Assembly (NCBI GenBank): GCA_965237525.1
Contig: CBDEFO010000004.1
Span: 205,951 to 269,950, forward strand
Source: Candidatus Latescibacterota bacterium
GTDB taxonomy: Bacteria > Latescibacterota > CBDEFO01
Reading direction: 5' to 3'
DNA: 64,000 bases
The translations under genes were made by a program, and so were the position numbers. Of the stretch, positions 10,577-49,522 are shown piece after piece. Each line of letters starts with the position of its first letter. Within the stretch, counting starts at the first letter, position 1. The notes under the pieces are model-generated. The model worked only from the letters and a program-made list of their open reading frames with translations, was not told the origin of the DNA and did not search any database.

Positions 10577-10578
10577 CT

Positions 10579-13375: not shown

Positions 13376-13398
13376 ACATCATCCCCGTACATAGACTT

Positions 13399-13462
13399 GG
13401 GCGAACACGTGGGTTCGCCCCTACATCCATCTTTTGTAGGGGCAGACCCGTGTGTCTGCCCT
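13399..13462. repeat. REP-like palindromic element pair (GGGCGAAC..GTTCGCCCCTACA / TGTAGGGGCAGAC..GTCTGCCC)
   Basis: Two adjacent hairpins sharing the TGTAGGGG/CCCCTACA terminus. The same family recurs at 57151..57202 and 63861..63990. Confidence 0.5.
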
Positions 13463-13478
13463 GAAAATGAGATTCTTC

Positions 13479-14324: not shown

Positions 14325-14420
14325 CTTCGGCCTTCTCCGTACGCAAGACTGTTGTGAAGAGTCCCGAAAAGTATCGAAAAACTTTCTTGGGGGAAGAGAG
14401 ACAGATTTCGGGTGTGACTC

Positions 14421-15146: not shown

Positions 15147-15186
15147 TGAGAACCTCCCAGGAGGATGCGGGTTACAAAAGGTAACT

Positions 15187-15510
15187 CTACGGTGAATTGG
15201 GATGCTCTTTTTTCTTCTGCTGGCGATAGGCGTTGAACACGAGAAGTCCGACAGCTCCGACCAACACAAAAGGAGAGAACATCATCACAAGGATGCTCCA
15301 GTAGAACCCTTGGGCAAGCTCAGCCGCGCTCTCGGAGTCTCCTTCGGTGGGAATAGCAGTCTTGCACATCTCACAAGCATCCGCAGCAGCAGAGGCGGTT
15401 AGCATGAGGAGCACGATAGCACAGAGCATTCTCAGGACGGACAATCCTTGGGAGAGGAAACTGGTCTTAGTGGAGATCTTTATGGGCCTAAAGTAAAATG
15501 GATTTGTCAT
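15187..15510 (-). CDS. small membrane protein with CEMC motif
   Basis: 107 aa, 2 TM, periplasmic CxxC. Embedded in the oxidase/cupredoxin operon. Confidence 0.4.
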   Translation of the reverse strand: MTNPFYFRPIKISTKTSFLSQGLSVLRMLCAIVLLMLTASAAADACEMCKTAIPTEGDSESAAELAQGFYWSILVMMFSPFVLVGAVGLLVFNAYRQQKKKEHPNSP

Positions 15511-15516
15511 AATCGT

Positions 15517-15553
15517 AGTAGTATCTCATAATCGTAGTAGTATAATGAGAATT
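15517..15553. repeat. tandem direct repeat (2 x 19 bp, unit CATAATCGTAGTAGTATCT)
   Basis: Immediately upstream of the start of 15187..15510. Confidence 0.6.
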
Positions 15554-15644
15554 ATTCCTAATAATAGCATGAAAAAGATAATCAAAAATGGGGCATAAAG
15601 CAAGACTTTTTTCGAGGCAATGGCGAAAGCTTCACAGCATTTTT

Positions 15645-19989: not shown

Positions 19990-22661
19990 CTACAGAGTCA
20001 GCAGATAATCTCTGAGCGCGTCTATCTGCATGTCCACCTGCTCTTTTTTGTACTCCTTATAGATCTTTCTCATTGAAGGAGCCGCGGGGATATATCTCCT
20101 CCTTTCGCCTCTTCCTACACCTATCCAGTTATTGGGCATCTTCGTGCCTTTTTGGATGCTTTGAGGGTCTTTGAGCCACCTTGCGATCCAGTCGTGCCTG
20201 AGCCTGTCTTTTGCCATCGTTAGATCAGGCGCCAGACTACCCACATCTAGATCGAGTGTCTGTCCCTTTGTCGGATGGCAGGACTTGCACTGCAACAGTG
20301 TAAATATCTCTTTTCCGACTTTGATCTGATCTTTTGAGATCTCGCCTTGGTCCACAAACTCGAAGGGGAAATCCACATCCGCAAGTGACGCAAAATACCT
20401 GGCGATGTCCAGTCGCTTCATCCTTCGAAAGGTTGAACGTGGGCATCTTGACGTTCAACCAAGGTCTTATAGGGACCGGATTCTTGAGGAAGTTGAAGAG
20501 CCACTCGGCTTGAACCTTGTCACCTTCGCCGTTTAAGTTCGGAGGCACCAAAGCGACCGCCTCGTCCCTGCTTTTACCTTCGGCGACCATAAAGTCGGAG
20601 ATAATAGGTGCGATGTCTCCGCCTCTATTCTCAATCTTGTGACACCCCACACAGTTGTACTTCTCGACAAGCCTTCTTCCCTTTTCGATCTCCTGTTCCT
20701 TCTTTGTGAGCATCCTGGCGTGATTTGGAGACATGTTGCCTCCTCTGAAGCTCTTCAGCAGGACAGTTAAGGCCTCTACCTCATCGTCGGTAAGTTCGAA
20801 GTCAGGCATCCTGGCTACAATCCTCTCGGTGGGCGAATAGTCCTCGGATTTTTGAGCTTGTTTTTGGTCCACGCCTCCCACGTGAAGTCTATTTCCGTGA
20901 CGTCTCCGAAGTCCAACGCCTCCGCTTCCTTGTTGCTAAACTCTGTAAGTTCCACACCTATTCTAGCGGCGTTTTCAAACCCTTTTATGTTATGACATCC
21001 AAAGCAGCCGTAATTCTGTATCAGTATCCTCCCTTTTTCTATCACTTGGGGATCGTTCAAGTGCAGGATGTGGTCTCCATAATCTTGGCTCTTTGTACTC
21101 ATAAGATATGCCGTAGTAGCCTTAGCCTCCCCATCCGACAGCCTGAGGTTCGGCATCTTGGTGCTGGAATTGTAAGAGGATGGGTCCTTGACCCATGCAA
21201 AGAGCCAATCGGGATCGACCTTGTCACCCACTCTGCTCAGATCGGGAGCGTAATCAAAATCTCCGTCTAAGTATGTCCCTTTTAAGATCGGACGGCCTTT
21301 CCCCAATAAAATGACACCCGTAACAGCCCACCTGTTCCACAATTTTCTTGCCGTCATCAATCATTTTCTCTGAGTACTCGACCTTTTCAAGCTCCGCCTC
21401 TTCAGATGTATTCAAAAGATACGCCGCTACGGACTCAGCTTCGTCTCTTGAGAACTTGAAGTTCGGCATCTTTGTATGCGGAAGATAACTTTTAGGATTC
21501 TCTATCCATCTTATGAGCCATTCGGGATTTGCAGTCTTCATCTTTAGCTTTGTCAGATCTGGTCCGACCTTCTCCAGATCCTCGTAGCCCTCGATCTTAT
21601 GGCATCCGTGACAGCCCAACTCTCTCAACAGTCTGTTTCCCTTGGAAAAGTGGGGTGCACCCTCAAGGTCCACCACCTGGAAGTGACACTTTTTGCAATT
21701 TGACTCTATAAAGAAGCCTTCTGCTACCGGGTCTTTCCAGTACTCGTTATCCCTTGACAGGGCGTCCTCGTACGTCATAGCTCTTCCCTGCCCTCCGTGA
21801 CACAATACGCATCCAAATTTGTCTATTGGATGATTGCCTAAAAGAAATTCTCTATTGGGATGAGCAGTATGAGGCTGAGGGAACTTCTGGACATCTGCAA
21901 ACTCCGGTTCGTCTATTCCAAGATGGCAGGAACTGCACCTGTCCACCATATCTATGTCCCTCAATCACCAACTGCTCTATCTTGGGGATCTTGCGCGCTA
22001 CGGCCTCCAATTTGAACTTATATTTATTCGCATCCGCTTTCAGTTCATCTATTTTTTTGGTCAGTTCCACAATCTCCTTTTCAACCTCATCCAAGTTAGC
22101 CAGTGCTTCATCTCTTTTTTCTTGAGCCTCGTCTATTTTCGGGAGGAACGAATTGGCAAACTTTTCCAGCTTATCCACTTCCGCCTTCTCCCCGGAAGCA
22201 TCCGATCCCCGATGCAGAGCGTGTTTATAGAGGTAAAAGGCTGCGTCTAATTCGCTCTTTGCGAACTGATACTTCTGGGTTACATCCTCAAGAGCGATCT
22301 CTTTATCTCTCAGATCTTGGCTGGCTTTTTTATATTCTTCGTTCTTTTCCAGATTCTTCTTTGCCTCCTCCAACTTCGCCGTCAGTTCCCTCTCCTCCTC
22401 GGGCATAGCCTTCAGTGCCTCTTCATACTCAGCCTTGGTCACTTCGTGCTCGTATTTGAAGAACTCCTCCTGAACCTTTTTCCAGGGTCGTCTGGTTATC
22501 GCCTCGTCGTATATAGTCCAGACCGTCACTAAGAGCATCACCATGATGGTCACAAGAAAGACGACACTGTAGGACTTGTCCTCCACCTTGAGTGTGTTAG
22601 ACTCTTCCTCCTGTGTTTCTTCTTCTTTCTTATTTTCCTGGTTTTCTTGATCTGACGCCAT
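19990..22661 (-). CDS. membrane-anchored multi-heme cytochrome c (N-terminal TM + coiled coil, at least 8 class-I heme domains), broken by about 4 frameshifts
   Basis: ORFs 21852..22661 (TM + coiled coil), 21254..21964 (CSSCH, CVLCH, CKKCH, CHGCH, CYGCH), 20815..21360 (CFGCH), 20237..20881 (CVGCH) and 19990..20421 (CKSCH) overlap in different frames. Repeated GPDL..W..W..NP..KMPN module. Shifts coincide with GGGGAAA or TTTTT runs. Confidence 0.6.
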
Positions 22662-22886
22662 GCTGTACCTTTCTAAAGAGTGGATAACCCGTTAAAAGGA
22701 CAGTTGTTACACGCTATGTTTTCCCTGAGACACTCTGGCTTGCATCTTCCCCGTTATCTTTCCTGAAGTACCCATGTTAGACACCCAGACGTCGAGCCAA
22801 CAGGCGCCCACCATCGTACCCAAGACCGCTAAAGTGACCGCTGCACTCAGGCGGCGGACCAAGTTCACGTCTGTCGCAAGATGCCT

Positions 22887-23183
22887 TCACTCTACATTTG
22901 CGATCTCAGCCTGTAATCTTAAGGCGTAGGTGGTGGCTGTGGATGGGGCGACGTACCACTTGCCTTTGTAGAGCAAATAAGATAACGCAAAACCCACGGC
23001 GACGCCCAAGATATTCAATATGACTAACCACTTGAATGCGTAGTCGTAAGGGGCGGTTCTATATTCTGTGAGGTGACAAGAAGTAAAGACATGAACGGGG
23101 AGAATTAAGAAGAGGTATATATATGAGGCGTTTCGGTATTTCCTTATGTGATTTGATAAGGGTGCTGTTGTTGATATATCCAC
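22887..23183 (-). CDS. small membrane protein (possible bc-complex accessory subunit)
   Basis: 98 aa, 2 TM, between cytochrome b and the multi-heme c gene. Confidence 0.35.
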   Translation of the reverse strand: MDISTTAPLSNHIRKYRNASYIYLFLILPVHVFTSCHLTEYRTAPYDYAFKWLVILNILGVAVGFALSYLLYKGKWYVAPSTATTYALRLQAEIANVE

Positions 23184-23264
23184 GATTTTGCCTTTGGAAT
23201 CACTGATAGCCCTAAACCCTTCTTCCCCTGATAAGAGGATAAGAGCAGGAGAGATGACAGGTCG

Positions 23265-24983
23265 CTATATGTTAAACCATGGAGTCACCCATACATATTT
23301 TATATTGAAGGCTATTCTCAGGAACATCTTTATAGGCAACGCCATCATACTCAGGAACAAAAAGGCGGTCACCGCGTACTTGATCGGATAGTTCTTGAGG
23401 TATGCGCTTTTATTTTTTCTGACAAAGTAATAGATGACCCCAAAAAAGTAATAACCTCCTACAACTATGGCACCGAAAATAGAGGCCATAAAGTTGTCCC
23501 TTATACCCAGGGCATAAGTCAGGTTCACGTTTGTCAGGGCTACCACTTTGTGGGGGTCCCATCTTTCCCAGGGGAAGAAAAAGTTCCATCCAGGTCCCCT
23601 CAGAAACGTCCCCATCATTATGAGGAACACCCATAGGACTATAAAGCCAAAACAGAACATGGTTATGGCGAACTTTCTCTCTTTGAACGTATAGTATCCC
23701 TGTCCCAACTTGTTCGTATCTACATAAGGAATAGCCATCAACCCTATAACGATCAGAGTCGGAAGTACGACGCCGGCTATCCATGGATCGAAATAGACGA
23801 GCATCTCCTGAAGCCCCAAAAAGTACCAGGGTGCCTTGGAAGGATTGGGTGTCTTGGAAGAATTAGCTATATCCTCCAAAGGAGCATCTATCCCAATTGA
23901 CCACACTGTAAGCAGGATCATACCCATCAAAAGACACAGAAACTCCGATCTCGTCAGATAGGGCCACACCAACACCTTGTCGTTCTCCACCTCCTCGGCG
24001 GACTTCTTTCCCTGTGCCTTCCGCCTGTCATTTTTTACCGCCTGCCTCATAGCTATATAAAGGCAGAAAAAGACCAATAGTAACATCCCGGCGATGGGTA
24101 TATTATCCGGTTTGCTCAATATTTTTATGAGGTTTTCCATATTATTACTGCCTGAAAACTCATGCGATGTGGAGTGGTTAGGTACCTTTGCTTTTCTAAA
24201 TTGGACCCGAGATTCCCCGTCCTTCCTTATCCTCCAGAAGTGGACAGCCATAAGTATGCTCGCCACAAGGGGGATAAAAATGCAGTGGAGAACATAGAAC
24301 CTCAAGAGCGTAGGGGGCCCGACCACAGTCCCACCCAGAAGGACGAATCTCACGTCGTTGTCTGGTTTCATTCCCAGATACTCGGAGAACGGGCCTTCGT
24401 GCCCCAGAAGAGGAGTCGCTCGCGCCATGTTCGTCCCGACTGTCACAGCCCATATTGAAAGCTGATCCCACGGCAGAAGATAACCGGTGAAGCTCAAAAG
24501 GAGCGTGAGCACCAGAAGAATGACGCCCACTGCCCAGTTGAACTCCCTTGGGGGTTTGTACGACCCCGTCAGAAAGACCCTGAACATGTGAAGCCAGACG
24601 GCGATCACCATCCCGTGAGCTGCCCAGCGGTGCATATTTCTCAGCATCATTCCGAACGGAACGTCGAACTGGAGGTATTTCATGTCGGAGTAGGCGTCAG
24701 CGGTCGGCCGGTAGTAGAACATCAAAAAGATACCTGTGACCACGGTCACAAGGAACATCAAAAACGTTATTCCGCCCATGCACCAGGTGAATCTTATCCT
24801 GAGAGCGTGTCTGGGGAGCTTGATGGGATGCAGGTGAAGAAAGACGTTGTCCAGTATCTGCAGCAACCTGTTGCGAGGTGTATCCTTATAGTCGTGTCTG
24901 AACGCTGATGTCCATATCTGCGACTTGGTTATTTTGTCCTTAAGCTGTTTGACGTTCAACATTTCCTCCTTATGATTGTGCAA
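23265..24983 (-). CDS. cytochrome b (long form, b6 + subunit IV fused) of a bc-type complex
   Basis: 572 aa, at least 8 TM. Cytochrome b signatures ([31 protein letters not shown], His ligands). Confidence 0.85.
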
Positions 24984-25109: not shown

Positions 25110-26629
25110 AAGCCTTGTGAAAAACCCTTAGATTCAGAAAGTAGTATAGAACAAGCATTGATAAAGCAGCTCCGATGTATTATATTATGTTATTGATAAT
25201 ATTATACATGGAGGAAACAATGACCCCACAAAAGCAGGAACAGACAAATCCGGTGTTTCACTATTTTCAGATGGAGGATTTAGTTCCCGAGGATCATATC
25301 CTTCGTCAGATTGATGAGGCAGTTGATTTTTCATTTGTACGAGACGTTGTATCAGATTGTTATTGCCCTGACAATGGCAGACCCGGTATTGATCCTGAAT
25401 TAGTTGTTCGAATGATCCTTATTGGCTATCTGTATAATTTGAGTGAGAATCGGCTCTGTCAGGAAGTGGGGATGCATGCGGCATATCGGTTGTTTTGTCA
25501 TCAGACATTTGATGATGCGGTTCCGGATAGGAGCACGATCAACAAGCTTCGCAATCACAAGTGGGCATCCAGTGGGTTGTTTGAACGGATAATGCGTCAG
25601 GTAGTCCAGTGTTGTATAGATGTCGGTGTTGTGAGCGGTAAACACCTTAGTGTCGACGGCACTCAGATACAAGCTGATGCTTCAGTGAAAAGTATTGAGC
25701 CGATAGAACCCCCTTTTTCTCTTGATGATTATCTCAAGGGAATCGGTTTTGAAGGTGATAAGACAAAGGGTAGGTCCCGGGCATCCTCAGGATAAAGACT
25801 TTCATGGTGAAAAGTGGACGAACCAAACACACCGTTCGACTACAGACCCCGACGCGCGCTTATACAGCAAATCGAAGGGCAAAGGGGCTTTTCTCTCGTT
25901 TATGGGCCATGATCTGATCGACACAAAAAGCAGAGTAATCCTTGAGACTCAGGGCACGCAGGCGACAGGGACAGCAGAGCCCGAAAGTGCCCTTAAGATG
26001 GTAGATGACCTTGAAACATACACCATGCCCAAAGACATTCAGACACTTAGTGCCGATACCGGTTACGGTTCTGGTAATTTTATCGCTGATGTACTTGACC
26101 GGGGAATCATACCCCATATTCCTCTGCGAGCCGATGAGAAGATTGAACCGATTCCTACATGGAAAAACAAGACAAATTCAGCACATATTCAGGCCGAACG
26201 GGATAGAAAAGTGCGAGAGGCGAAAGCCAGAAATCATGCACGGTCTATCTCATTAACAGCTGACTACAAACTCTCCCGGAGACTCCGTAAACGCAGTGAA
26301 CATATCTTTGCTGAAGCCAGGCAACAACACGGTATGGGACGAGCCCGTTACAGAGAACTAGCCTCACTGAATGAACAGTTGAATCTTGTTGCAACAGTAC
26401 AGAATCTCAAGAGGCTTGTATCTTTCATAAGAAGGGGGAAAGCGTCTATGTGTGCCCTGTCTGTCAAAGACAGTGCATCCTGTTCTTCAAACAGCTCCTA
26501 TTCCTTGCTGACCAGAACTCTGATAAGACTATTTTGCTTATTCCACAGCAAAACGATACGATATGCTACTCTTTGACCCATAATCGGCGCTTCAGACGCT
26601 GCCTGGGACATAACTATTTCACAAGGCTT
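25110..26629 (+). mobile_element. IS copy A (1520 bp; IS5/IS1182-like DUF772+DDE transposase, +1 frameshift), TSD TTAG
   Basis: Terminal IR AAGCCTTGTGAAA / TTTCACAAGGCTT. Flanking 4 bp direct repeat ttag (25106..25109 and 26630..26633). Transposase split into ORFs 25175..25795 and 25722..26576 by an extra C near 25780. Confidence 0.85.
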
Positions 26630-27149
26630 TTAGTGAATAGATCTTCCTTAGTCTCTATGTCATTTTTCTTTGCAATGAGCAAAGTGGCTGGCAAATCCGT
26701 GGTCAGCGTAGTACCTTGCATTTTCAAATAGTTCATCACCTCTCTATACAAGTTTATGACCTTTAGCTCGGAGTATTGTTCTTCCGCCAGATTTACCATC
26801 TTTTCCCTGGCCGACCCTGACAAAACCCAAGCGACCTTCTCTAAACCTACGGGAATGTTTCTGTTTTTTTCCAGCTCAAGCCACTTTACCATTTCATCCA
26901 AAATAGCCTCATAGTCCTCATGCACTTCAACTTCACCTGAACTGTCAAAGGAAGTGTTCCATTTGTTAGCCTTAGCGTAGAGTCGAGCTAGAACTGTTCC
27001 CATAGAGTCTTCCCCAGCACAGACCAATAACTTAATACTTTTCTCGGGGCCGGCCGACTTAAAAAAGAGGCCGATTTTCCCCACATCTTGCGAGAGTCTG
27101 AATATGGACCCTATGATCTTATACTTTTCCTCTTCCTTCTCCTCTCTAA

Positions 27150-28668
27150 AAGCCTTGTGAAAAACCCTTAGATTCAGAAAGCAGTATAGAACAAGCATTG
27201 ATAAAGCAGCTCCGATGTATTATATTATGTTATTGATAATATTATACATGGAGGAAACAATGACCCCACAAAAGCAGGAACAGACAAATCCGATGTTTCA
27301 CTATTTTCAGATGGAGGATTTAGTTCCCGAGGATCATATCCTTCGTCAGATTGATGAGGCAGTTGATTTTTCATTTGTACGAGACGTTGTATCAGATTGT
27401 TATTGCCCTGACAATGGCAGACCCGGTATTGATCCTGAATTAGTTGTTCGAATGATCCTTATTGGCTATCTGTATAATTTGAGTGAGAATCGGCTCTGTC
27501 AGGAAGTGGGGATGCATGCGGCATATCGGTTGTTTTGTCATCAGACATTTGATGATGCGGTTCCGGATAGGAGCACGATCAACAAGCTTCGCAATCACAA
27601 GTGGGCATCCAGTGGGTTGTTTGAACGGATAATGCGTCAGGTAGGCCAGTGTTGCATAGATGTCGGTCTTGTGAGCGGTAAACACCTTAGTGTCGACGGC
27701 ACTCAGATACAAGCTGATGCTTCAGTGAAAAGTATTGAGCCGATAGAACCCCCTGTTTCTCTTGATGATTATCTCAAGGGAATCGGTTTTGAAGGTGATA
27801 AGACAAAGGGTAGGTCCGGGCATCCTCAGGATAAAGACTTTCATGGTGAAAAGTGGACGAACCAAACACACCGTTCGACTACAGACCCCGACGCGCGCTT
27901 ATACAGCAAATCGAAGGGCAAAGGGGCTTTTCTCTCGTTTATGGGCCATGATCTGATCGACACAAAAAGCAGAGTAATCCTTGAGACTCAGGGCACGCAG
28001 GCGACAGGGACAGCAGAGCCCGAAAGTGCCCTTAAGATGGTAGATGACCTTGAAACATAGACCATGCCCAAAGACATTCAGACACTTAGTGCCGATACCG
28101 GTTACGGTTCTGGTAATTTTATCGCTGATGTACTTGACCGGGGAATCATACCCCATATTCCTCTGCGAGCCGATGAGAAGATTGAACCGATTCCTACATG
28201 GAAAAACAAGACAAATTCAGCACATATTCAGGCCGAACGGGATAGAAAAGTGCGAGAGGCGAAAGCCAGAAATCATGCACGGTCTATCTCATTAACAGCT
28301 GACTACAAACTCTCCCGGAGACTCCGTAAACGCAGTGAACATATCTTTGCTGAAGCCAGGCAACAACACGGTATGGGACGAGCCCGTTATAGAGGACCAG
28401 CCTCACTGAATGAACAGTTGAATCTTGTTGCAACAGTACAGAATCTCAAGAGGCTTGTATCTTTCATAAGAAGGGGGAAAGCGTCTATGTGTGCCCTGTC
28501 TGTCAAAGACAGTGCATCCTGTTCTTCAAACAGCTCCTGTTCCTTGCTGACCAGAACTCTGATAAGACTATTTTGCTTATTCCACAGCAAAACGATACGA
28601 TATGCTTCTCTTTGACCCATAATCGGCGCTTCAGACGCTGCCTGGGACATAACTATTTCACAAGGCTT
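27150..28668 (+). mobile_element. IS copy B (1519 bp), transposase with TAC>TAG nonsense, TSD CTAA
   Basis: Same IRs. TSD ctaa (27146..27149 and 28669..28672). Transposase ORF 27215..28060 stops at ...DDLET* where the intact copies read ...DDLETYTMPKD. Confidence 0.85.
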
Positions 28669-29419
28669 CTAAGTATACTTGGAGCCAAGAAGATAGGAAG
28701 CTCTGCTATGAGAGGAACATCGTCCTTAGCGAGCTCTTTTTTTATTTGGCCAAGATCAATGGCTATAGGCTCGGCTGTGAGCCTGATATCTTGTTTAAGA
28801 GACACAATTAAGGACTTGTACTCCTCCTTTAAGACCTTCAGATAGAGGAATTTTAATTCCTGGTTATTCATCATTATTGCTCCTTTAACCTGTCTTTAAC
28901 CTGTGGTCCCCTCTATAACTACTTTGGGTGTTACTGCTTCTCTATAATAAAGTATGACAAGCTTGTCTGCAAGCATTATTTAATGGTTAAAGAAATAGTA
29001 AGGTCTGGAAGGTGATTAAGAGATTAGAGCTATCTCAGGCTGTTAATCTTAATCAGAAAAGTACCCTGAGGAATATTCCTCCTAAGAATAACTAAGCTTC
29101 TATTTTTAATGTTCTTGTGCTTATTCATCATTTACAAACCTCTTGCTCTTAGATATCTTTTAGTTACGTAACTTTTCGTTATCCCATAGCACAACGGTGG
29201 TTGGCTGGTGTCTCTGCTGTAAGATCGTTCTGGCAAATGCCGGTCCCGGGGAACAGCCCGAACTGGATGATGGACTGTGTCGAGAAGATGTGCCGGAGAA
29301 CTTGGGCGAGGAATAAAGGGGATAAAAAAAGGTCGAAATATAATCCCTAATGAATGTGATATGGGGAATGTCGGTTTCTAACTAAAACGGTGAAGTTGAA
29401 TGAAAGGAGGTTGAAAAAG

Positions 29420-30232
29420 ATGAGTCTGTTCAGGGATGTAATACGAAGCATACATGGCTTCCTGTCTGATTCAGAATCAGAAGAGAAGCCAAAAGCCAAA
29501 CCTCGTATTCAAGAGCTTGCTACCCAGAGGGTTCAAGCCCTGCAAGGGAGATGGGAGGTTGTTGAGGCTCAGGTAAAGTTGGCGGCCCAAACACGTCAAG
29601 AGCTCAAAAAGCTCGTGGCAGAAGCCAAAGCCGTAGAAACGATTGGCATAAGAGCAATGGCTGCCAACAACAACAAGAAAGCGGAAGCTGCCCAGGCACG
29701 GTATGTAATTTTGCAGGAAACTATCCAGCAGATGACTACTCAAGCTCAGACTGCTGATCAAGAAGCCCAAGAGGCGTTGGTAAGCTTTAAGACGGAAGCC
29801 AATGCCGCCAGGAGATCAGTCTCAGAAGCCAAAGCCCTGGCTCAACTTGAGCACGTGCTAGAGCTTCAAAAGAAGCATCGGGCACTCGAAATAACACAGT
29901 CAACAGCGGCTGATGAGTTCGAAGAGGCCAAAGACCAGCTTCTTTTGGAGACATCAGTTCAGGCTGCTACCCAGAATATTCAGAAAGGAGAAGATGAACT
30001 GGCTGGGGAGATAGCGGCCGAATTACAAGATTTCAAGGCTCAACAGATCGGAGAAGAGTGGAGAAAGAGACTGGCTGAGGCGAATGGTAAAGTCGATGCT
30101 GAATTTGAGATTATAAGCAGCGATGCCAGTGAAGAGGCCATCCAATTTCTGGATCGACCTGTTTTGGGGGGCTTACTTGGTCATCAGGCCACTACTCCTG
30201 AAGACGAAGATTCAGAGGGTTCAAATGAGTAG
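29420..30232 (+). CDS. PspA/IM30 (Vipp1) family membrane-stress protein
   Basis: MSLFRDVIRS... N-terminal amphipathic helix. Long coiled coils (QELATQRVQALQ...). Acidic C-terminus. SD AGGAGG 7 nt upstream of ATG 29420. Confidence 0.7.
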   Translation: MSLFRDVIRSIHGFLSDSESEEKPKAKPRIQELATQRVQALQGRWEVVEAQVKLAAQTRQELKKLVAEAKAVETIGIRAMAANNNKKAEAAQARYVILQETIQQMTTQAQTADQEAQEALVSFKTEANAARRSVSEAKALAQLEHVLELQKKHRALEITQSTAADEFEEAKDQLLLETSVQAATQNIQKGEDELAGEIAAELQDFKAQQIGEEWRKRLAEANGKVDAEFEIISSDASEEAIQFLDRPVLGGLLGHQATTPEDEDSEGSNE

Positions 30233-30250: not shown

Positions 30251-30964
30251 GTGAGTATTATGACAGAGCTGCTCTATTGGTGGAACTTGATTTTTGTTCT
30301 ACCTTTTGTCGCAGCACTGTTCTACATCCTGCTACTGACTACTGGAACAGGAGCGGCCCACCATGGTCATGGAACAGATGTTGATCATGACGTCGATCAT
30401 GATGTGGGCATCGAACATGACGTAGCTGACACTGGCCATGATTTTGGACATGGTGTTGAGCACGGATGCGAGGCCGGAACCTTTTTAAGAGGCCTAAGCT
30501 TCCTGGGAATCGGAAGAGTTCCTGTCTCTATCATTGTGGTCTCTTTCTGTTTCATCTGGGGATTTAGTGGTTGGGCAAGCAATAGGATGTTAGACGAGAT
30601 TCTTCCAGCCACGTTGTTTTTCTGGCCATCGTTGGTTATCGCTCTTCTAGCCTCAGTATTTGTTACTCGCATTTTGGCCACAGGCATTTCAAAAATAATG
30701 CCGGCCACCGAGACGTATGCTGTTTCCGAAGGTCAGTTAACTGGCAGGATAGCCGAAGCGGTTACCAATATTGATGACAGTTTTGGCCAAGCCCAAGTTC
30801 ACGATGACTCAGGGTTCCTCCACACTATTTCCTCTCGGGTAAAACCGGGAGAGAAAAAAATTCCCCGGGGAACCCAGGTGGTACTTATGTATCACAACCA
30901 GGAAGAGCGCTTCTTTTTTGTAAACAGCGAGCTTCCGTCAACTGAAGGACTGACCGAGGAGTGA
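30251..30964 (+). CDS. NfeD-like membrane protein with His/Asp-rich loop and C-terminal OB-fold
   Basis: TM helices. Loop HHGHGTDVDHDVDHDVGIEHDVADTGHDFGHGVEHG. C-terminal NfeD-type beta domain (GQLTGRIAEAV...GTQVVLMYHNQEERFFFV). Precedes flotillin, as in yuaF-floT pairs. Confidence 0.6.
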   Translation: MSIMTELLYWWNLIFVLPFVAALFYILLLTTGTGAAHHGHGTDVDHDVDHDVGIEHDVADTGHDFGHGVEHGCEAGTFLRGLSFLGIGRVPVSIIVVSFCFIWGFSGWASNRMLDEILPATLFFWPSLVIALLASVFVTRILATGISKIMPATETYAVSEGQLTGRIAEAVTNIDDSFGQAQVHDDSGFLHTISSRVKPGEKKIPRGTQVVLMYHNQEERFFFVNSELPSTEGLTEE

Positions 30965-30998: not shown

Positions 30999-32999
30999 AT
31001 GATGGGCGCACTAATAGTAGTTGTTGCCCTGGCCTTTGTCACTCTGCCTCTGGTTTCCAGCGACTATGTCCAGGGGATCAGCCAGATACTCATTGTTGGT
31101 TTTGGAGTTCTGCTGCTGGTGCTGGTATCGGGTATTCGCATTATAACCCGTCTCTACCGAAGAACAGCCGCAGACGAAGCGTTCGTGAGAACAGGAATGG
31201 GCGGGCAAAAAGTTATTATTGATGGCGGTGCTCTTGTTGTTCCTGCTGTACACGAATTAATTCCAGTATCCCTCAGCACCATGAGGCTTGATGTTGAAAG
31301 GACAGGACCCCATGCTCTTATTACTGGAGATAAACTCCGAGCTGACATCGAGGCAGAATTCTACATCAAGGTTCAGAAAGAAAGAGATGACGTGGTCAAT
31401 GCCGCAACCTCTCTTGGCGAGAGGTCGGTTACTCCAGAAAACGTCAAAGAGCTAGTTTTTGACAAGCTGGTTTCAGCACTCAGAACCGTTGCTGCTACCA
31501 AAGATCTTCATGATCTGAACGAGAAGCGGGATGAGTTTGCTCACGCGGTCCAGAACATAGTGGAAAAAGACCTCAAGCATAATGGTCTGACATTGGAGAC
31601 GGTCACTGTTTCAATGTTGGATCAGACCCCGCCGGATAAGATGCGGGCGGACTCAAACGTTTTTGACGCTGAAGGCACGAGGAAGATCGCTGAGATCACC
31701 CAGAAGATGCGGGTGGAAACAAACGCCATCGCGCGTAAGGCGGACAAGGAAGTCAAACAACAGGACGTTGAGAAGGATAAGTTCGTCTACACGCAAGAAC
31801 TTGGACGTGCCACTGCCGAGGCTATCCAAGACAGCGATATCCAACAAGCCCAAGCTGAAGCTGCGCAGAAAGCGGACACTTTCACTGCCGAGCAGGAAGA
31901 ACAAGCCCGCGTTCGTGAGGTAGAAAGAGACCAGGCCATCCAGGTTTCGGGAGTCGAAAAGGCAAAACAAATCCAGGTGGCTAATGAGCAGCGCGAGCAG
32001 GCCCAGCAAGAAGCTGCGATTAAGAAACAAAAGGCTGTGGCCGATAGAAACAAAGAGAAAGCCGAAGCTGAAGCTGCGCAGAAAGCGGCTGAGACTGAAC
32101 GCGAGAAAGAAGCTCAGAATGTACAGACCGTTGCCATCACTGAAGAGGCAAAACGGACGGCTGAAAAAGGGTACATTGCAAAAGCCCGAGAGATTGACCA
32201 AGATGCGTACGAAAAGGAGCGTCAAGCTGAAGCAGAGCGGGTAGCCGCTGCAAGAGAAGCCGAGGCTCGTAAGACAAAAGCTGTGGCTGAAAAGGAGGCT
32301 CTGACAGACGAGGCTGAAGGTAAGACTGCTAGCGAAATGGTTCCAGTCAACGTTGAAAGAAAGAAGGTTGAAGTTGAACAGTCTCGAGTCAACGATGTGA
32401 CCAAACCACAGTTGGCAGCCAAAGCTGAGTTCCAGGAAATCTCCGTAAAGCTCGAGCTTGGCCTGAAGAACATCGAGGTCAATGGTGAGGTTCAAAAAGC
32501 TTTTGCCGATGCTATGGGGCTATCTCTTAGCGAGGCTGATATGAACATCTTCGGTGACCCTACCACTCTGGGTAAAATGATGACCATGTTCAGGAACGGT
32601 CAAGCTCTTTCAACCGGAATTGATGGTTTCATGAAAAGTGTTGACCCGGATGCCCTTGGTCTCATCGGGGATATTGTCTCAGGTGTCAAAGACACTCTCA
32701 CTGGAATCTTCCAGGGTATCTTTGGTAAAACCCTAGAAGATAGTACTGTTCAGGCTCTGGCTGCTAAGATTACTGAACAGCCTGAGATTCTCGAGCAGAT
32801 CCAGGAGAAAGTAGTTTCGGCCCTCAAATCCCCGAGGGATGAAGCTGGGCTGGCTCAATACTTGGCTGCTACCTTTGGAGATGATTTTGATCTTAAGAGT
32901 GTTTCTGCTCTAATCGAAACCATCAAGGAGAAGCCGGCGATTCTTGGTCAGCTCAATCAAGCTTTTTCTAAACTTCAAGTCGCTGGTGCGACTGAGTAA
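30999..32999 (+). CDS. flotillin (SPFH/Band-7 domain) with long Glu/Ala/Lys-rich coiled coil
   Basis: N-terminal TM hairpin. SPFH domain (GGQKVIIDGGALVVP...). About 250 aa EA-rich coiled coil, then a C-terminal flotillin tail. Confidence 0.75.
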   Translation: MMGALIVVVALAFVTLPLVSSDYVQGISQILIVGFGVLLLVLVSGIRIITRLYRRTAADEAFVRTGMGGQKVIIDGGALVVPAVHELIPVSLSTMRLDVERTGPHALITGDKLRADIEAEFYIKVQKERDDVVNAATSLGERSVTPENVKELVFDKLVSALRTVAATKDLHDLNEKRDEFAHAVQNIVEKDLKHNGLTLETVTVSMLDQTPPDKMRADSNVFDAEGTRKIAEITQKMRVETNAIARKADKEVKQQDVEKDKFVYTQELGRATAEAIQDSDIQQAQAEAAQKADTFTAEQEEQARVREVERDQAIQVSGVEKAKQIQVANEQREQAQQEAAIKKQKAVADRNKEKAEAEAAQKAAETEREKEAQNVQTVAITEEAKRTAEKGYIAKAREIDQDAYEKERQAEAERVAAAREAEARKTKAVAEKEALTDEAEGKTASEMVPVNVERKKVEVEQSRVNDVTKPQLAAKAEFQEISVKLELGLKNIEVNGEVQKAFADAMGLSLSEADMNIFGDPTTLGKMMTMFRNGQALSTGIDGFMKSVDPDALGLIGDIVSGVKDTLTGIFQGIFGKTLEDSTVQALAAKITEQPEILEQIQEKVVSALKSPRDEAGLAQYLAATFGDDFDLKSVSALIETIKEKPAILGQLNQAFSKLQVAGATE

Positions 33000-33065: not shown

Positions 33066-33542
33066 ATGGAAGCAACACCTGGAGATGATATTAAGCCAAA
33101 GGTACTGGTGATTTCCTGCTCCGATGGTAGGTTTGCTCAAGCAAAGCAGCAGTTCCTAACTGAAGATTTAGAGCTTACAGTTTTTGACGAAGTTACTGTA
33201 CCGGGAGGGCCAGCCAGAGTTCTCATTTCCGGAACTAACTTCTTTGCGGTCCAGGATGATATAAAGATGCTTGCTAAGGCACACGCAACAGAAAGGGTAA
33301 TTGCCATTGCACATTTCGATTGTGCCTACTACCACAACAAGCATCCAAGATTAGAAGAAGAGGCAGACCTAAGGGAAAAGCAGAAAAATGACCTTCTTGA
33401 ATTTGCCGAGGAGATCAAGAATCTTGTTCCCAATGTCTTGGTGGAACTCTATCGGGAAAATGTTGAAGATGGCCAAGTAGTTTTCCGTGAGATTAAACCA
33501 ACAACTTTAGGAGGTGATGAAAATGGGCTGGTTGATACATAA
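33066..33542 (+). CDS. small beta-carbonic-anhydrase-like Zn-motif protein (CxDxR ... HxxC)
   Basis: VLVISCSDGRF and IAHFDCAYY reproduce the beta-CA Cys-Asp-Arg / His-x-x-Cys ligand pattern. At 158 aa the assignment is tentative. Confidence 0.3.
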   Translation: MEATPGDDIKPKVLVISCSDGRFAQAKQQFLTEDLELTVFDEVTVPGGPARVLISGTNFFAVQDDIKMLAKAHATERVIAIAHFDCAYYHNKHPRLEEEADLREKQKNDLLEFAEEIKNLVPNVLVELYRENVEDGQVVFREIKPTTLGGDENGLVDT

Positions 33543-34434
33543 CCCCATTGCCGATATGTATGGCCACGATTTTCTACTCTTTTACGGGGGCATCATTGTG
33601 CTGACGCTGGTAGCCTGTTGGCTGAAACTGCGTCAATCTGACCCGACGGCATCCATGCCCCTACCACCGGTCCCTTCCGAACCGAATCCCTATGAAACCG
33701 CTTACCTGCGCGGCGGGGAGAATGAAGTAACGCGAGTGGTAATCTTCGGCTTGACCCAGCGAGGATACTTACAGGTGACAGAGGAAGCGGACAAACGGAT
33801 AGAACAGGCGCCGGACCATCCTGACCCTGCCCACCTGCCCCAACTGGAACGCGCCGTGTTTGAAGCGTTACAAATACCCCTGAGCGCCGAGGACATCTTT
33901 AAAAGCGTGAGCTTGTCCTCCACGGTTCGGTCATACTGCACTACTTACGAGCAGACACTTCAGAACGAGCAATTACTCACAGCCGACGAGGTGAAGACGG
34001 CCGCCAAGAGAATCGGACTTACAGGGGCTGCGGTTATCTTCGGCTTGGGAGGTTACAAGCTACTCATCGCTTTAGCGAAGGGTTACTCCAACGTGGGTTT
34101 CCTTATTGTTATGGGCATTGTTTCGCTTGTAATTCTCTTCATAATTTGCGAGTCGGACCGTCTTAGCAGCAGGGGAAAGAAGTATTTGGAGCGTCTCCAG
34201 TTAGCATTCGAGCGGCTGAAGGGGTCTGCTGCCAGTGTCCCCTCTGCGGCGGTGGACTCAACTCTATTGCTGCTCGTGGGAGTCTTCGGCGTCGAACTGC
34301 TTGCGGGAACCCCCTACGCCTACTACCAAGAAATGTTCCAGAGGTCTTCGTCAGGTGGGGGATCTTGTGGCGCTGGCTGTGGCTCAGGTGGAGGAGACGG
34401 GTGTGGCGGCGGCTGCGGCGGCTGCGGGGAATAG
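33514..34434 (+). CDS. polytopic membrane protein with C-terminal Gly/Cys-rich tail (TIGR04222-like); putative MNIO substrate
   Basis: About 4 TM. C-terminal 27 aa SSSGGGSCGAGCGSGGGDGCGGGCGGCGE with 7 Cys. SD AGGAGGTG before the ATG cluster at 33514..33523. Stop lies 8 nt before the DUF692 start. Confidence 0.55.
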   Translation: MMKMGWLIHNPIADMYGHDFLLFYGGIIVLTLVACWLKLRQSDPTASMPLPPVPSEPNPYETAYLRGGENEVTRVVIFGLTQRGYLQVTEEADKRIEQAPDHPDPAHLPQLERAVFEALQIPLSAEDIFKSVSLSSTVRSYCTTYEQTLQNEQLLTADEVKTAAKRIGLTGAAVIFGLGGYKLLIALAKGYSNVGFLIVMGIVSLVILFIICESDRLSSRGKKYLERLQLAFERLKGSAASVPSAAVDSTLLLLVGVFGVELLAGTPYAYYQEMFQRSSSGGGSCGAGCGSGGGDGCGGGCGGCGE

Positions 34435-34442
34435 TGAGAACT

Positions 34443-35285
34443 ATGGAAGGTATACTTTCACATCTGCCGGCATTGGGCGTTGGTCTAGGTTTTCGCGAGC
34501 CGTTCCGCAGTGACCTCTTTCTGCACCAAAAGAAGGTTGACTTTCTTGAGATCACGGCGGATCACTATCTCGATGCGCCGCCAGAGAAGGAGCAAGAGCT
34601 GGAATTGCTCTCAGAGCATTTCACGCTCATCCCGCATGGGATCAACCTGTCCCTGGGAAGCGCTGAGGGAGTAGATGCCGCTTACGTTCGTAAGCTGGCA
34701 GCACTCATTCGGCGGCTGAATCCACCGTGGTGGAGTGAACACATCGCCTTCACGCAAGCGGGCGGTGTGGACATCGGGCATTTGTCACCTTTGCCCTTCA
34801 CGCGCGAGGCGGTGGAGGTGCTTTCCCACAACATTGAAGCCGTGCGCCGCCAAATTGACGTGCCACTGATTTTAGAGAACATCACCTACTTGGTGCCCAT
34901 ACCAGGTGCGGAGATGACCGAAGCTGAGTTCCTGAGGGAAGTGCTGGAGCATACCGATTGCGGGCTGTTGTTAGATGTCACTAACCTACACATTAATGCT
35001 GTCAACTACGCCTATGACGTTCAGGCGTTTTTAGAGCAATTGCCATTGGAGCGCATAGTGCAGCTTCACTTCGTTGGAGGACATTGGCATAACGGTGTGA
35101 TCATTGACAGCCACTCGCAACCAACACCGCCTGAGGTGTGGACACTTATGGAAGCAGTCGTCGCTCATGCGCCGGTGAAAGGGATCATTCTGGAGCGGGA
35201 TGAGAACATACCTCCGTTTGAAGAACTGCTAGGAGAGATAGAACAGGCACGCTCCATTGGAAGACAGCACGAACGATGGGATTAG
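34443..35285 (+). CDS. DUF692 family protein (MbnB/TglH-like multinuclear non-heme iron oxidative enzyme, MNIO)
   Basis: Start at MEGILSHLP (ATG 34443; the annotated ORF start at 34365 gives an implausible Arg/Trp-rich leader). TIM-barrel xylose-isomerase-like fold, with the conserved blocks characteristic of DUF692 proteins (LGVGLGFREP, EHF..IPHGINLSLGS, LILENITYL, LLDVTNLHINA). Confidence 0.7.
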   Translation: MEGILSHLPALGVGLGFREPFRSDLFLHQKKVDFLEITADHYLDAPPEKEQELELLSEHFTLIPHGINLSLGSAEGVDAAYVRKLAALIRRLNPPWWSEHIAFTQAGGVDIGHLSPLPFTREAVEVLSHNIEAVRRQIDVPLILENITYLVPIPGAEMTEAEFLREVLEHTDCGLLLDVTNLHINAVNYAYDVQAFLEQLPLERIVQLHFVGGHWHNGVIIDSHSQPTPPEVWTLMEAVVAHAPVKGIILERDENIPPFEELLGEIEQARSIGRQHERWD

Positions 35286-35977
35286 CGCAGATACAGCGAG
35301 TTTTGAGCCAGCTTTACACCGATGATGTCTTGCGGGAACGTTTCTTTGCGGATCCACAAGCGGTAGGTGAAGTGTTGGGACTTAGTTCTGCTGAGACACA
35401 TCAGCTTGCTCAACTATCAGCCCAGCATGTCAACTTCTTCGCCAGGTCACTGAAGCGCAAACGGCTAAACGTAGTGTGCAAACTGCTGCCGCTCACGCAT
35501 CGAGTGTTGGGTAAGCGATTTTCCGGGCTTTTCCTTCAATATGCCGATACCCATGTGCCGATGGGGACGAAGAAACATCGAGAAGATGCCGGTGCTTTCT
35601 CTAAATTTGTCGAACAGGCCGCTCGTGTGGACGGCATTGAACCGCCTTGGATCATGGAGCTAGTTCGTTACGAAGCGTCGTGTCTGGAAGCAGCGGACAC
35701 AACTTGCTGGTGGATAATGCGCTGGTTTCGTTACCCCCCAGTTAAGCTGGTGCGAAGTTTGATGCAGGGTGATGGAGCCCCATTGCCATTGGCGCAGCCT
35801 ACTATTGCTCTCTGGTTTCGCTTCTCGCGGCGAAATCGGCTTCGGCATATCGCTCTGACGCTGCCGCGTCCATTCATAGGCAAAAGCGAGGCGTACATAG
35901 GCCAGCAACTTCGGAGGCATCCCTGGACCGTTAGGATTACTTGCCATAGAGACATGGAAATCACAGGAATGAAATAG
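35276..35977 (+). CDS. DUF2063-like partner protein of the MNIO (MbnC/TglI-type)
   Basis: Overlaps the DUF692 stop by 10 nt. N-terminal region matches the DUF2063 pattern (RF..YRN-like RERFFADP..., helical bundle). Typical gene order DUF692 then DUF2063. Confidence 0.5.
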   Translation: MGLAQIQRVLSQLYTDDVLRERFFADPQAVGEVLGLSSAETHQLAQLSAQHVNFFARSLKRKRLNVVCKLLPLTHRVLGKRFSGLFLQYADTHVPMGTKKHREDAGAFSKFVEQAARVDGIEPPWIMELVRYEASCLEAADTTCWWIMRWFRYPPVKLVRSLMQGDGAPLPLAQPTIALWFRFSRRNRLRHIALTLPRPFIGKSEAYIGQQLRRHPWTVRITCHRDMEITGMK

Positions 35978-36076
35978 AGTTAAGATCATCTTCTATCTTT
36001 CTCTGTGTCTTTGTGGTCAAATGGATTAACCCGACGATTAAGGGTCACTACCAAATAATCTAGCTCTTTGTTATAG

Positions 36077-36106
36077 GGGAAGTCCCAGTGACTTCCCTTT
36101 TTTATT
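36077..36106 (+). terminator. rho-independent terminator of the PspA..DUF2063 operon
   Basis: GGGAAGTC-CCAGT-GACTTCCC followed by TTTTTTATT. Confidence 0.65.
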
Positions 36107-47000: not shown

Positions 47001-49522
47001 ATGGTTCTGAAGATGAAGCGAAAGATTTGGTCTATTCCCATAGCAGCCACAGCAGTACTTCTGGCCTGTTGCATTGTCTCAGCGAAAGCCCAGAGTCTGT
47101 TTAAAAAACCCGAGCTTGTACTCTCAGCAGCAGAGGGGACTAATCCAGGAGAGTTAGGACTGCGTGTTCCCCAGCCAGAAGGTGAGATCTCATTTCCATC
47201 AGATTTTGCTGTCGATGCTAAAGGTAACTTCTGGATCCTAGATGATGTGAATCGTCGGATTCAGAAGTTTAACACCAATGGCGACTTCGTCCTTGCGTGG
47301 GATGGTGATGGAAGGAGCATACTCTCAGGGGCAATTTTGGAGGCAGATAACGAGGGTAACATTTATGTAATGGTGAGTGATACAGAGAGACATTGGTGGA
47401 TAGCGAAATTGAATACAGAAGCCCAGATCGTGAGACACTTTCTCGTTAGTGATCCACCTATTAGTGATTTTTACCTTCGTGTTAATTCTAAAGGCGCAAT
47501 GTGCATCAACAGCGGTTTTCGTGCTCGATTTCTTGACAAGGAAGGCAACACTGTGCTATCAAGAGGAAGTGTTTACCGCATATTTACCTCAGCCTTTTCA
47601 GAAAAAATTTCGTTAAGAACTCTCTCAGAGGGTGGAGACATTTTGACTTTAGAGCGATATGTGCAAATCCCTGAAAAAGGCATCCCTGGATTGTCTGTAT
47701 CATTAAAAGCCTTGTGAAATAGTTATGTCCCAGGCAGCGTCTGAAGCGCCGATTATGGGTCAAAGAGTAGCATATCGTATCGTTTTGCTGTGGAATAAGC
47801 AAAATAGTCTTATCAGAGTTCTGGTCAGCAAGGAACAGGAGCTGTTTGAAGAACAGGATGCACTGTCTTTGACAGACAGGGCACACATAGACGCTTTCCC
47901 CCTTCTTATGAAAGATACAAGCCTCTTGAGATTCTGTACTGTTGCAACAAGATTCAACTGTTCATTCAGTGAGGCTGGTCCTCTATAACGGGCTCGTCCC
48001 ATACCGTGTTGTTGCCTGGCTTCAGCAAAGATATGTTCACTGCGTTTACGGAGTCTCCGGGAGAGTTTGTAGTCAGCTGTTAATGAGATAGACCGTGCAT
48101 GATTTCTGGCTTTCGCCTCTCGCACTTTTCTATCCCGTTCGGCCTGAATATGTGCTGGATTTGTCTTGTTTTTCCATGTAGGAATCGGTTCAATCTTCTC
48201 ATCGGCTCGCAGAGGAATATGGGGTATGATTCCCCGGTCAAGTACATCAGCGATAAAATTACCAGAACCGTAACCGGTATCGGCACTAAGTGTCTGAATG
48301 TCTTTGGGCATGGTGTATGTTTCAAGGTCATCTACCATCTTAAGGGCACTTTCGGGCTCTGCTGTCCCTGTCGCCTGCGTGCCCTGAGTCTCAAGGATTA
48401 CTCTGCTTTTTGTGTCGATCAGATCATGGCCCATAAACGAGAGAAAAGCCCCTTTGCCCTTCGATTTGCTGTATAAGCGCGCGTCGGGGTCTGTAGTCGA
48501 ACGGTGTGTTTGGTTCGTCCACTTTTCACCATGAAAGTCTTTATCCTGAGGATGCCCGGACCTACCCTTTGTCTTATCACCTTCAAAACCGATTCCCTTG
48601 AGATAATCATCAAGAGAAACAGGGGGTTCTATCGGCTCAATACTTTTCACTGAAGCATCAGCTTGTATCTGAGTGCCGTCGACACTAAGGTGTTTACCGC
48701 TCACAAGACCGACATCTATGCAACACTGGACTACCTGACGCATTATCCGTTCAAACAACCCACTGGATGCCCACTTGTGATTGCGAAGCTTGTTGATCGT
48801 GCTCCTATCCGGAACCGCATCATCAAATGTCTGATGACAAAACAACCGATATGCCGCATGCATCCCCACTTCCTGACAGAGCCGATTCTCACTCAAATTA
48901 TACAGATAGCCAATAAGGATCATTCGAACAACTAATTCAGGATCAATACCGGGTCTGCCATTGTCAGGGCAATAACAATCTGATACAACGTCTCGTACAA
49001 ATGAAAAATCAACTGCCTCATCAATCTGACGAAGGATATGATCCTCGGGAACTAAATCCTCCATCTGAAAATAGTGAAACATCGGATTTGTCTGTTCCTG
49101 CTTTTGTGGGGTCATTGTTTCCTTCATGTATAATATTATCAATAACATAATATAATACATCGGAGCTGCTTTATCAATGCTTGTTCTATACTACTTTCTG
49201 AATCTAAGGGTTTTTCACAAGGCTTTTAAACAAGCAGGGATCTAGTGCAAGAGCAATAGAAGCAATTGATGGGCAAGGGAATTCATTTGTTACTGCATTT
49301 AAGGATCGCAAGAGAATTATGGAATTCTATGGTAGTGGAGGGGAATACCTTGGTCTAGTTCCTGATTGTCCGAAGAGAACGTTAGGCAACCCAGGTAGCG
49401 GAGATGATTTCGTTACAGATGGAAATGGGAATCTATACCAGATACAGCTAACTCCTTCCTGGTGGGAGCGCGAATCAGCTAAGGGGTCGGTCAAGATATG
49501 GAAGTGGGAGAGGATAAAGTGA
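47001..49522 (+). pseudogene. secreted NHL-repeat protein, paralog 3, interrupted by IS copy C (pieces 47001..47706 and 49226..49522)
   Basis: Removing IS copy C and one TTAA restores the frame ...GLSVSLNKQGSSARAIEAIDGQGNSF..., colinear with paralog 1. Confidence 0.7.
47707..49225 (-). mobile_element. IS copy C (1519 bp, intact 466 aa transposase), TSD TTAA
   Basis: IRs AAGCCTTGTGAAA. ttaa at 47703..47706 and 49226..49229. Transposase ORF 47760..49160. Confidence 0.9.

Follow-up and report, generated by a model that had tools for sequence, protein, structure and literature searches.

Introduction

Can an enzyme that oxidises cysteines in small peptides act on the end of a large integral membrane protein? 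The question is raised by a 64,000-nucleotide stretch of DNA from Candidatus Latescibacterota bacterium (assembly GCA_965237525.1, contig CBDEFO010000004.1, positions 205,951 to 269,950 of the forward strand; hereafter the window), in which three co-directional genes occupy positions 33514-35977. They encode a polytopic membrane protein of the TIGR04222 family (T), a multinuclear non-haem iron oxidative enzyme (MNIO, or DUF692 protein; M) and an MNIO partner protein (P). An original prediction, made from this sequence alone, took the three genes for a membrane-tethered modification system akin to those that produce peptides of ribosomal origin that are modified after translation (RiPPs), with a cysteine-rich tail of T as the substrate. 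On balance, we consider it probable that the genes form a protein-maturation cassette in which M and P oxidise the cysteines of Cys-Gly dyads in the T tail, most probably to 5-thiooxazoles, yielding a tethered metal-binding product.

Proteins of the TIGR04222 family make up 40% of the signal-peptide-less, cysteine-containing proteins encoded before MNIO genes (PMC12452194). The same study (Microb Genom 2025) proposed that the subsets of this family with C-proximal Cys-rich segments are substrates of the adjoining MNIOs with PME-type 2 partners, and left the modifications themselves for future investigation. Because that paper makes the same proposal, the idea behind the original prediction was already published, and the arrangement is not new: the trio is a further member of a cluster type described from genomes in 2025. 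The original statement that the arrangement is biochemically uncharacterised is borne out by the searchable literature, in which no experimental papers on TIGR04222 proteins or on MNIO-modified membrane proteins were found.

In this work, profile searches, structure prediction and comparison of related loci (designated L followed by a number) were combined for the three genes. A sample of 69 genome loci was found via an alignment of the partner P, and its member nearest to the window by P is a metagenome-assembled genome of Latescibacterota (64% identity). A second sample, started from T, comprised 80 metagenome loci and three further ones from contig look-ups (L073-L075), 60 of which were informative, having enough downstream sequence. 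One related locus, L070, is the window's own contig, identical in sequence and provided with a gene call.

Results

A Gly/Ser/Cys tail is a conserved feature of the membrane protein

The N-terminal region of T had been said to resemble TIGR04222, and the NCBIfam model of that name matches the protein with 114.5 bits against a cut-off of 43, over profile positions 2-228 of 229. The DUF2207_C domain (PF20990) scores 31.4 bits, just below its cut-off of 33, and a precomputed PF20990 match is present in many homologues. The mechanically derived open reading frame (ORF) begins with a GTG at 33514; the homologue consensus and the gene as called on the identical contig both back the ATG at 33523, which is used here (Table 1). 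Four hydrophobic segments were found at residues 21-39, 169-187, 194-212 and 245-263. The AlphaFold2 (AF2) model of T has a predicted local distance difference test (pLDDT) score of 90.4, and the tail is disordered in it, with pLDDT below 50 at residues 280-297.

Five of the eight cysteines of T lie in the 29-residue tail, at tail positions 8, 12, 20, 24 and 27. The count of seven Cys in 27 residues given originally was mistaken, and the description of a Cys-rich tail on a polytopic membrane protein stands. Among the 120 best matches to T, 119 are full-length and one (P0092) is a truncated or frameshifted product of 214 aa; every full-length homologue has a Gly/Ser/Cys tail, with 3-9 Cys within the last 45 aa. 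The tails consist of 48% Gly, 17% Ser and 14% Cys and almost always terminate in approximately CGGGCGGCGG. Gly follows 629 of the 685 tail cysteines (92%), and the distances between successive cysteines cluster at 3-5 residues. Directly before the tail lies a conserved segment (Table 1) in which T263 and F272 are nearly invariant (alignment A2), and we regard it as a candidate recognition element for the modifying enzymes.

The enzyme is an MNIO related to the 5-thiooxazole-forming clade

The T gene stops with TAG at 34432-34434 and, after the 8-nt spacer tgagaact, M begins with the ATG at 34443, exactly as originally described; the 10-nt overlap between M and P (P starts at 35276, M ends at 35285) is likewise as described. 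The assignment of the gene at 34443 to DUF692 is secure: PF05114 (MbnB_TglH_ChrH) matches M with 294.4 bits against a cut-off of 25, over profile positions 1-261 of 263. With the nine iron ligands of TglH as the reference (H71, H107, E151, D184, N187, H216, D229, H231 and E258; listed in PMC10880893), M keeps all nine, as H65, H100, E145, D178, N181, H209, D222, H224 and E251.

Among the NCBIfam models, BufB (237.1 bits) and HvfB (222.8 bits) score highest, followed by ApyH (121 bits), ChrH (74 bits) and MbnB (49 bits). Both leading scores stay under the respective equivalog cut-offs, 310 for BufB (NF050167) and 360 for HvfB (NF003818). Sequence matches in the PDB were 3bww (131 bits), TglH (8hci_D, 116 bits) and MbnB (48 bits). 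Judged by these profile scores, M is a relative of the 5-thiooxazole-forming clade and a member of neither named family, because it scores best against BufB and HvfB and yet misses their cut-offs. A 5-thiooxazole is favoured as the product because M scores nearest to these two enzymes, and the Cys-Gly context of the T tail fits such chemistry because FonBC, a 5-thiooxazole MNIO, has a preference for Cys-Gly dyads (PMC13097082).

The partner has a TglI-like fold and no DUF2063 signature

The third gene had been called DUF2063-like, which proved right for the fold and wrong for the sequence family. PF09836 (DUF2063) gave no match at E<=10 for P and three relatives and none at E<=1 for 37 aligned family members, and a Pfam scan of P returned no matches at all. 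Membership of P in DUF2063 is thus rejected by the hidden Markov model (HMM), and the likeness is one of fold. A precomputed match to PF26136 (SCO6045_C) exists for the identical-contig product and for 60 of 63 homologues; our local Pfam scans gave none, the model being apparently absent from that copy of the database. The AF2 model of P, built from 37 sequences (pLDDT 86.8), has a helical domain at residues 1-140 and then a small beta/alpha/beta-beta domain at residues 146-195. Its top Foldseek match is TglI (E 5.6e-5), whereas PDB searches with the P sequence, single or as a profile, returned noise only. The relatives of P measure about 180-230 aa, and in the window protein some 35 C-terminal residues are neither conserved nor ordered.

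P follows directly after the MNIO, lacks a DUF2063 signature and is structurally akin to NGO1945 (3dee) and TglI (8hi7/8hci), in agreement with the definition of PME-type 2. Because of the missing DUF2063 match and the TglI/NGO1945 fold of the model, P is, as modelled, an MNIO partner of PME-type 2 in the nomenclature of PMC12452194. A side observation concerns its residues 5-60 (window 35288-35455), where NHLP, LigA, NHase_alpha and Frankia_peptide models match weakly, all below their cut-offs, around the common motif ...lYtd..lRerFFadP...geelGLs. P itself as a precursor of the NHLP type was rejected in view of these sub-cut-off scores, its unconserved cysteines and the TglI fold over the whole protein.

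Gene order and tail are conserved together

Whether T accompanies the MNIO/partner pair across genomes was a question raised with the original prediction, and in most loci it does. The order T-M(-P), on one strand and with the genes mostly overlapping or nearly abutting, was found in about 52 of the 69 genome loci. Their hosts are Nostocales and other cyanobacteria, Latescibacterota, Blastocatellaceae/Pyrinomonadaceae, Armatimonadota and Limisphaerales, so that the cassette occurs in at least five phyla (Cyanobacteria, Latescibacterota, Acidobacteriota, Armatimonadota and Verrucomicrobiota). In the T-started sample, 51 of the 60 informative loci have T with M, with or without P, five have T with a radical S-adenosylmethionine (SAM) enzyme, and four have no recognised maturase next to T; a recognised maturase thus lies directly downstream of T in 56 of the 60. 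Long contigs confirmed T-M-P and showed unrelated flanking genes. The tail goes with this gene order: 68 of the 71 T-family ORFs beside MNIO or partner genes have it, and the three exceptions are fragments, so the loss of the Cys-rich tail from orthologous loci, which would have spoken against the prediction, was not seen.

Two or three tandem T copies precede a single M-P pair in 13 loci, many of them from Nostocales (L008, L013-L015, L017, L031-L034, L054, L055, L058 and L067, upstream of position 6001). Every copy ends in a Cys-rich tail of its own, apart from a truncated one in L017 (270 aa, 1 Cys). By analogy, such loci resemble RiPP clusters with several precursors. Decayed cassettes also occur: in L029:5596-6183 (P0054) an in-frame deletion joins the T N-terminus to P, and L131:3938-5566 has T and P and no M. 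In L057 and L066, around 5800-6500, partner genes stand beside MNIO fragments. A called 503-aa T::MNIO fusion (L072:1488-2999) was rejected as a frameshift artefact in the GC-rich tail region; its record name contains '2x', which we take to mean low coverage.

A different reading of the locus is that M and P modify a small peptide, unannotated or encoded elsewhere, and that T is an anchor, exporter, receptor or immunity factor. Classical MNIO substrates are indeed small peptides, and some M-P pairs have no adjoining T. A six-frame phmmer search of the window flanks against the related loci then available, L070 excepted, found conserved segments inside T, M and P only and no further conserved ORF, although short divergent precursors may escape phmmer. 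The separate precursor gene that the original prediction might have missed was accordingly not found. The tight spacing of T and M in the window and in most loci, the retention of the Cys tail in T copies next to the pair, and the association of the T family with a second, unrelated class of peptide maturase (see below) all run counter to this reading, which we consider improbable.

Alternatively, the tail could function without being modified, be it as a thiolate ligand of the metallothionein type, as an Fe-S or disulphide motif or as a flexible linker, and its linkage to the MNIO would then reflect co-regulation and not a relation of enzyme to substrate. One quarter of the TIGR04222 proteins have no C-proximal Cys, and the lack of an MNIO in one third of the genomes with a TIGR04222 protein agrees with such a role (PMC12452194), as do the four informative loci in which a Cys-tailed T has no recognised maturase next to it, one of them being the MNIO-less L131. 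Nevertheless, in this T subfamily a maturase stands directly downstream in nearly all informative loci, the gene overlaps suggest translational coupling, and a substrate-binding partner with an RRE-like (RiPP recognition element-like) domain is conserved with the pair. We therefore give little credence to an unmodified tail and retain the T tail as the most plausible substrate of M and P.

A radical SAM enzyme takes the place of the MNIO in sister loci

Five sister loci, four of them distinct (L074, L076, L077/L078 and L088), have a radical SAM/SPASM gene after T in place of the M-P pair. This gene overlaps the T gene, as in the arrangement at L074:6001-8030, and the T proteins linked to it are 47-53% identical to that of the window, with the same N-terminus and tail. 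The best NCBIfam matches of these radical SAM proteins are SbtM (thio/selenooxazole maturase) and the ACGX-system radical SAM family. SbtM scores 147-158 bits in the two full-length proteins in which it ranks first and 106 bits in the truncated copy from L076, and the match leaves about the first 190 of the 516 SbtM model positions uncovered. The likeness to SbtM is a lead from profile scores and no family assignment.

SbtM converts the Cys or Sec of a Gly-Cys motif to a thio(seleno)oxazole, with a loss of 4 Da and absorbance at 304 nm (PMC9204691). This is the ring made by the MNIOs BufB, HvfB and FonB. The sister-locus enzyme independently points to the T tail as a maturase substrate, because two unrelated classes of maturase behind one and the same tailed protein would otherwise be hard to explain.

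The nature of the modification is a separate matter. The tail may be an MNIO substrate and undergo a different reaction, such as beta-carbon excision of the TglH type, oxazolone/thioamide formation of the MbnB type or Cys cross-linking, and serve as a redox or structural motif and not as a copper chelator. MNIOs catalyse many different reactions, according to published abstracts; M lies under the BufB and HvfB equivalog cut-offs; and the partner is of PME-type 2 and TglI-like, with TglI as its top Foldseek match. On the other side, the BufB and HvfB scores of M are about twice that of ApyH and three to five times those of ChrH and MbnB, the Cys-Gly dyads of the tail fit 5-thiooxazole enzymes, and the maturase of the sister loci resembles the maker of the same ring. 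Other chemistry on the T tail seems unlikely to us, and 5-thiooxazole formation remains the preferred proposal.

Proposed mechanism and membrane topology

The positive-inside rule places, as a prediction from the sequence, the N-terminus of T outside, the 130-residue soluble domain and the loop between the third and fourth transmembrane segments (TM3-TM4) inside, and the tail outside. Over 69 aligned T proteins, the TM3-TM4 loop (33 residues) has on average 7.3 Lys and Arg residues, compared with 1.6 for the tail and 0.2 for the N-terminus. A cytoplasmic location is predicted for M and P from two features only, the N-terminus of the MNIO, which begins like those of its homologues, and the soluble AF2 model of P. 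Radical SAM/SPASM enzymes, the counterparts of the pair in the sister loci, are cytoplasmic proteins.

In the mechanism that we propose, M and P would act in the cytoplasm on the disordered C-terminal tail of the T protein encoded directly upstream. The M-P complex would bind the newly made C-terminus of T, perhaps via the LAGTxYxxYxxMF segment or via the cytoplasmic domain. If the tail ends up on the outer face of the membrane, the modification would take place on the cytoplasmic side, ahead of the insertion of the last hydrophobic segment. The cysteines of the Cys-Gly dyads would be oxidised, most probably to 5-thiooxazoles, in a four-electron oxidation with 4 Da lost per Cys. The modified tail would remain on its four-helix membrane anchor; the product is expected to stay tethered because the conserved cassette includes no protease or exporter gene. 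The end product would be a membrane-tethered tail binding a soft metal, probably copper.

Several observations weigh against parts of this proposal. The fourth hydrophobic segment is short, with an AF2 helix of about 15 residues that contains Asp/Glu; the membrane side of the tail is therefore unsettled, and a cytoplasmic tail is possible. Since M scores below the BufB and HvfB cut-offs, its chemistry may differ from theirs, and 5-thiooxazole formation has been demonstrated (PMC12452194, PMC13097082) where the MNIO has a PME-type 1 partner and the precursor a Sec signal, neither of which applies here. The SbtM and ACGX matches of the radical SAM enzymes are far below cut-offs (147-158 versus 350-400 bits). 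In a minority of cases (L040, L042, L062, L064 and L065) an M-P pair stands with no T within 5 kb, and the TIGR04222-bearing genomes that have no MNIO, already mentioned, belong here as well. When the window ORFs were scanned with Pfam, no gene for copper homeostasis was noted, and biochemical work on any TIGR04222 protein was not found in the searchable literature.

Genomic surroundings of the cassette

The features of the cassette and of its neighbourhood are collected in Table 1. The coiled-coil, NfeD, flotillin and Pro_CA_2 genes lie upstream of the cassette and share its strand; the gaps between them measure 18, 34 and 66 nt, and the last of them overlaps T. The Pro_CA_2 gene is probably co-transcribed with T; in the related loci then available for comparison, no Pro_CA_2 homologue was found beside T. 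A single unit of seven genes would be bracketed by a promoter-like site at 29131 and the strong hairpin at 36075, and these boundaries are suggestive only because the promoter and terminator counts were not above shuffled expectation.

Table 1. Features of the T-M-P cassette and its upstream neighbours (window coordinates; aa, amino acids)
Feature	Position	Strand	Remarks
Coiled-coil protein	29390..30232	+	Upstream of NfeD/YqiJ-like gene
NfeD/YqiJ-like membrane protein	30251..30964	+	PF21001 YqiJ_N
Flotillin/SPFH protein	30999..32999	+	PF01145 Band_7
Pro_CA_2 (putative carbonic-anhydrase-like) gene	33066..33542	+	PF20393, 46 bits; 20-nt overlap with T start
T, TIGR04222-family polytopic membrane protein	33523..34434	+	303 aa from ATG; NCBIfam match
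Segment directly before tail, LAGTPYAYYQEMFQR	34300..34344	+	Family consensus LAGTxYxxYxxMF; AF2 helix 266-280
Gly/Ser/Cys tail, coding region, SSSGGGSCGAGCGSGGGDGCGGGCGGCGE	34345..34431	+	Candidate substrate (core); 5 Cys, Gly after each
M, MNIO/DUF692 enzyme	34443..35285	+	280 aa; PF05114
P, MNIO partner, TglI/NGO1945 fold (DUF2063-like + RRE-like)	35276..35977	+	233 aa; AF2/Foldseek
Terminator-like hairpin	36075..36099	+	10-bp stem and T run; about 100 nt after P; probable 3' end of unit

In two Xenococcaceae loci (L045:3055-6002 and L048:6675-9533), T-M-P is likewise accompanied by an NfeD and flotillin pair, there directly downstream. A link of the cassette to NfeD/flotillin proteins and membrane microdomains is possible, and it is a mere hint because the pair is absent from the other related loci, about 65 in number. 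The NfeD/YqiJ-like protein of the window has a His/Asp-rich loop, AAHHGHGTDVDHDVDHDVGIEHDVADTGHDFGHGVEHG (window 30353-30466), that looks metal-binding; its Xenococcaceae homologues are acidic there and have no His.

Elsewhere in the window, five copies of one insertion sequence (IS) with a DUF772 + DDE_Tnp_1 transposase were found at 25175-26576, 27215-28615, 47760-49160, 55659-57059 and 60418-61818. Three copies are on the minus strand and have an intact ORF of 466 aa, whereas the two plus-strand copies are each broken into two ORFs and flank a 193-aa ORF (26614-27198) with no Pfam match. The minus strand at 9581-16763 and 20237-24983 carries a gene cluster for cytochrome c oxidase of the aa3 type (COX2, COX1, CtaA, CtaB/UbiA) with cytochrome c and b genes; it represents an ordinary respiratory context with no evident tie to the cassette.

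Discussion

The comparison bears out the tethered, RiPP-like modification reading of the original prediction, with corrections to the partner family, the number of tail cysteines and the novelty of the arrangement. Family assignments, iron ligands, partner fold, tail conservation, gene order and the lack of a conserved small ORF are results of the comparison, whereas the role of the tail as substrate, the chemistry, the topology and the metal binding are inferred from them. The clusters described in PMC12452194 consist of the same three parts in the same order as in the window: a signal-peptide-less, tailed TIGR04222 protein, an MNIO near those of bufferins and oxazolin, and a DUF2063-negative partner with the NGO1945/TglI fold. 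T has the C-proximal Ser/Gly-rich region interspersed with Cys by which that paper delimits its substrate subset, with an MNIO gene 8 nt downstream. There is no essential difference between these clusters and the trio; the TIGR04222 proteins of the paper are mostly from Actinomycetota, whereas the relatives compared here come from five other phyla. Neither the radical SAM alternative nor the flotillin/NfeD neighbourhood is found in the text of PMC12452194. Our contribution is therefore confirmation with added comparative evidence for an idea whose core is not new.

Three characterised groups of systems offer further comparison. The captophorins (BufABC bufferins, HvfABC oxazolin and FonABC fontiphorin) are copper-binding 5-thiooxazole peptides (PMC13097082). 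They share with the window trio the kinship of the MNIO, a partner gene after the enzyme gene and many Cys-Gly dyads. Their precursors are small and carry a Sec signal, and their partners are DUF2063-positive and of PME-type 1; in the window, by contrast, the candidate substrate is the tail of a four-TM protein of about 300 aa, the partner is DUF2063-negative, and neither a DoxX gene nor a copper gene was noted in the vicinity. In the TglHI system of 3-thiaglutamate biosynthesis (PDB 8hci), TglH removes the beta-carbon from one Cys that has been added to the C-terminus of a small peptide; M is closer in sequence to the HvfB-like 3bww than to TglH (131 versus 116 bits). Finally, the SbtM/SbtA and ACGX radical SAM systems, which resemble the radical SAM enzymes of the sister loci and have no counterpart in the window, are associated with Gly-Cys or Ala-Cys-Gly-X peptides, the latter repeat being presumably the one that the ACGX family name denotes.

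In the strict sense the trio does not encode a RiPP system: the candidate substrate is a 303-aa protein with four TM segments, and the conserved cassette includes no protease or transporter gene. Because there is no short precursor that is released or exported, RiPP-like protein modification is the better label. A wider scheme, to which we hold only tentatively, is that the MNIO makes an anchored 5-thiooxazole chelator, that an SbtM-like radical SAM enzyme does the same on the same protein family in sister genomes, that the result is a permanent membrane metallophore, and that in the Latescibacterota genome studied here the cassette may be co-transcribed with an NfeD/flotillin scaffold.

If this wider scheme is true, T would be the first true integral membrane protein proven to be an MNIO substrate, and two enzyme superfamilies would be interchangeable on one substrate. 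The occurrence of either an MNIO with its partner or a radical SAM enzyme behind one tailed protein offers a natural comparison for the question whether both make the same ring. The compact cassette has its three genes in 2.5 kb and occurs widely among cyanobacteria and soil phyla. Should the tail be modified, MNIO chemistry would no longer be confined to small secreted peptides and would include the tails of proteins integral to the membrane, where a cell-anchored array of thiooxazoles would offer another means of buffering or passing on copper or other soft metals.

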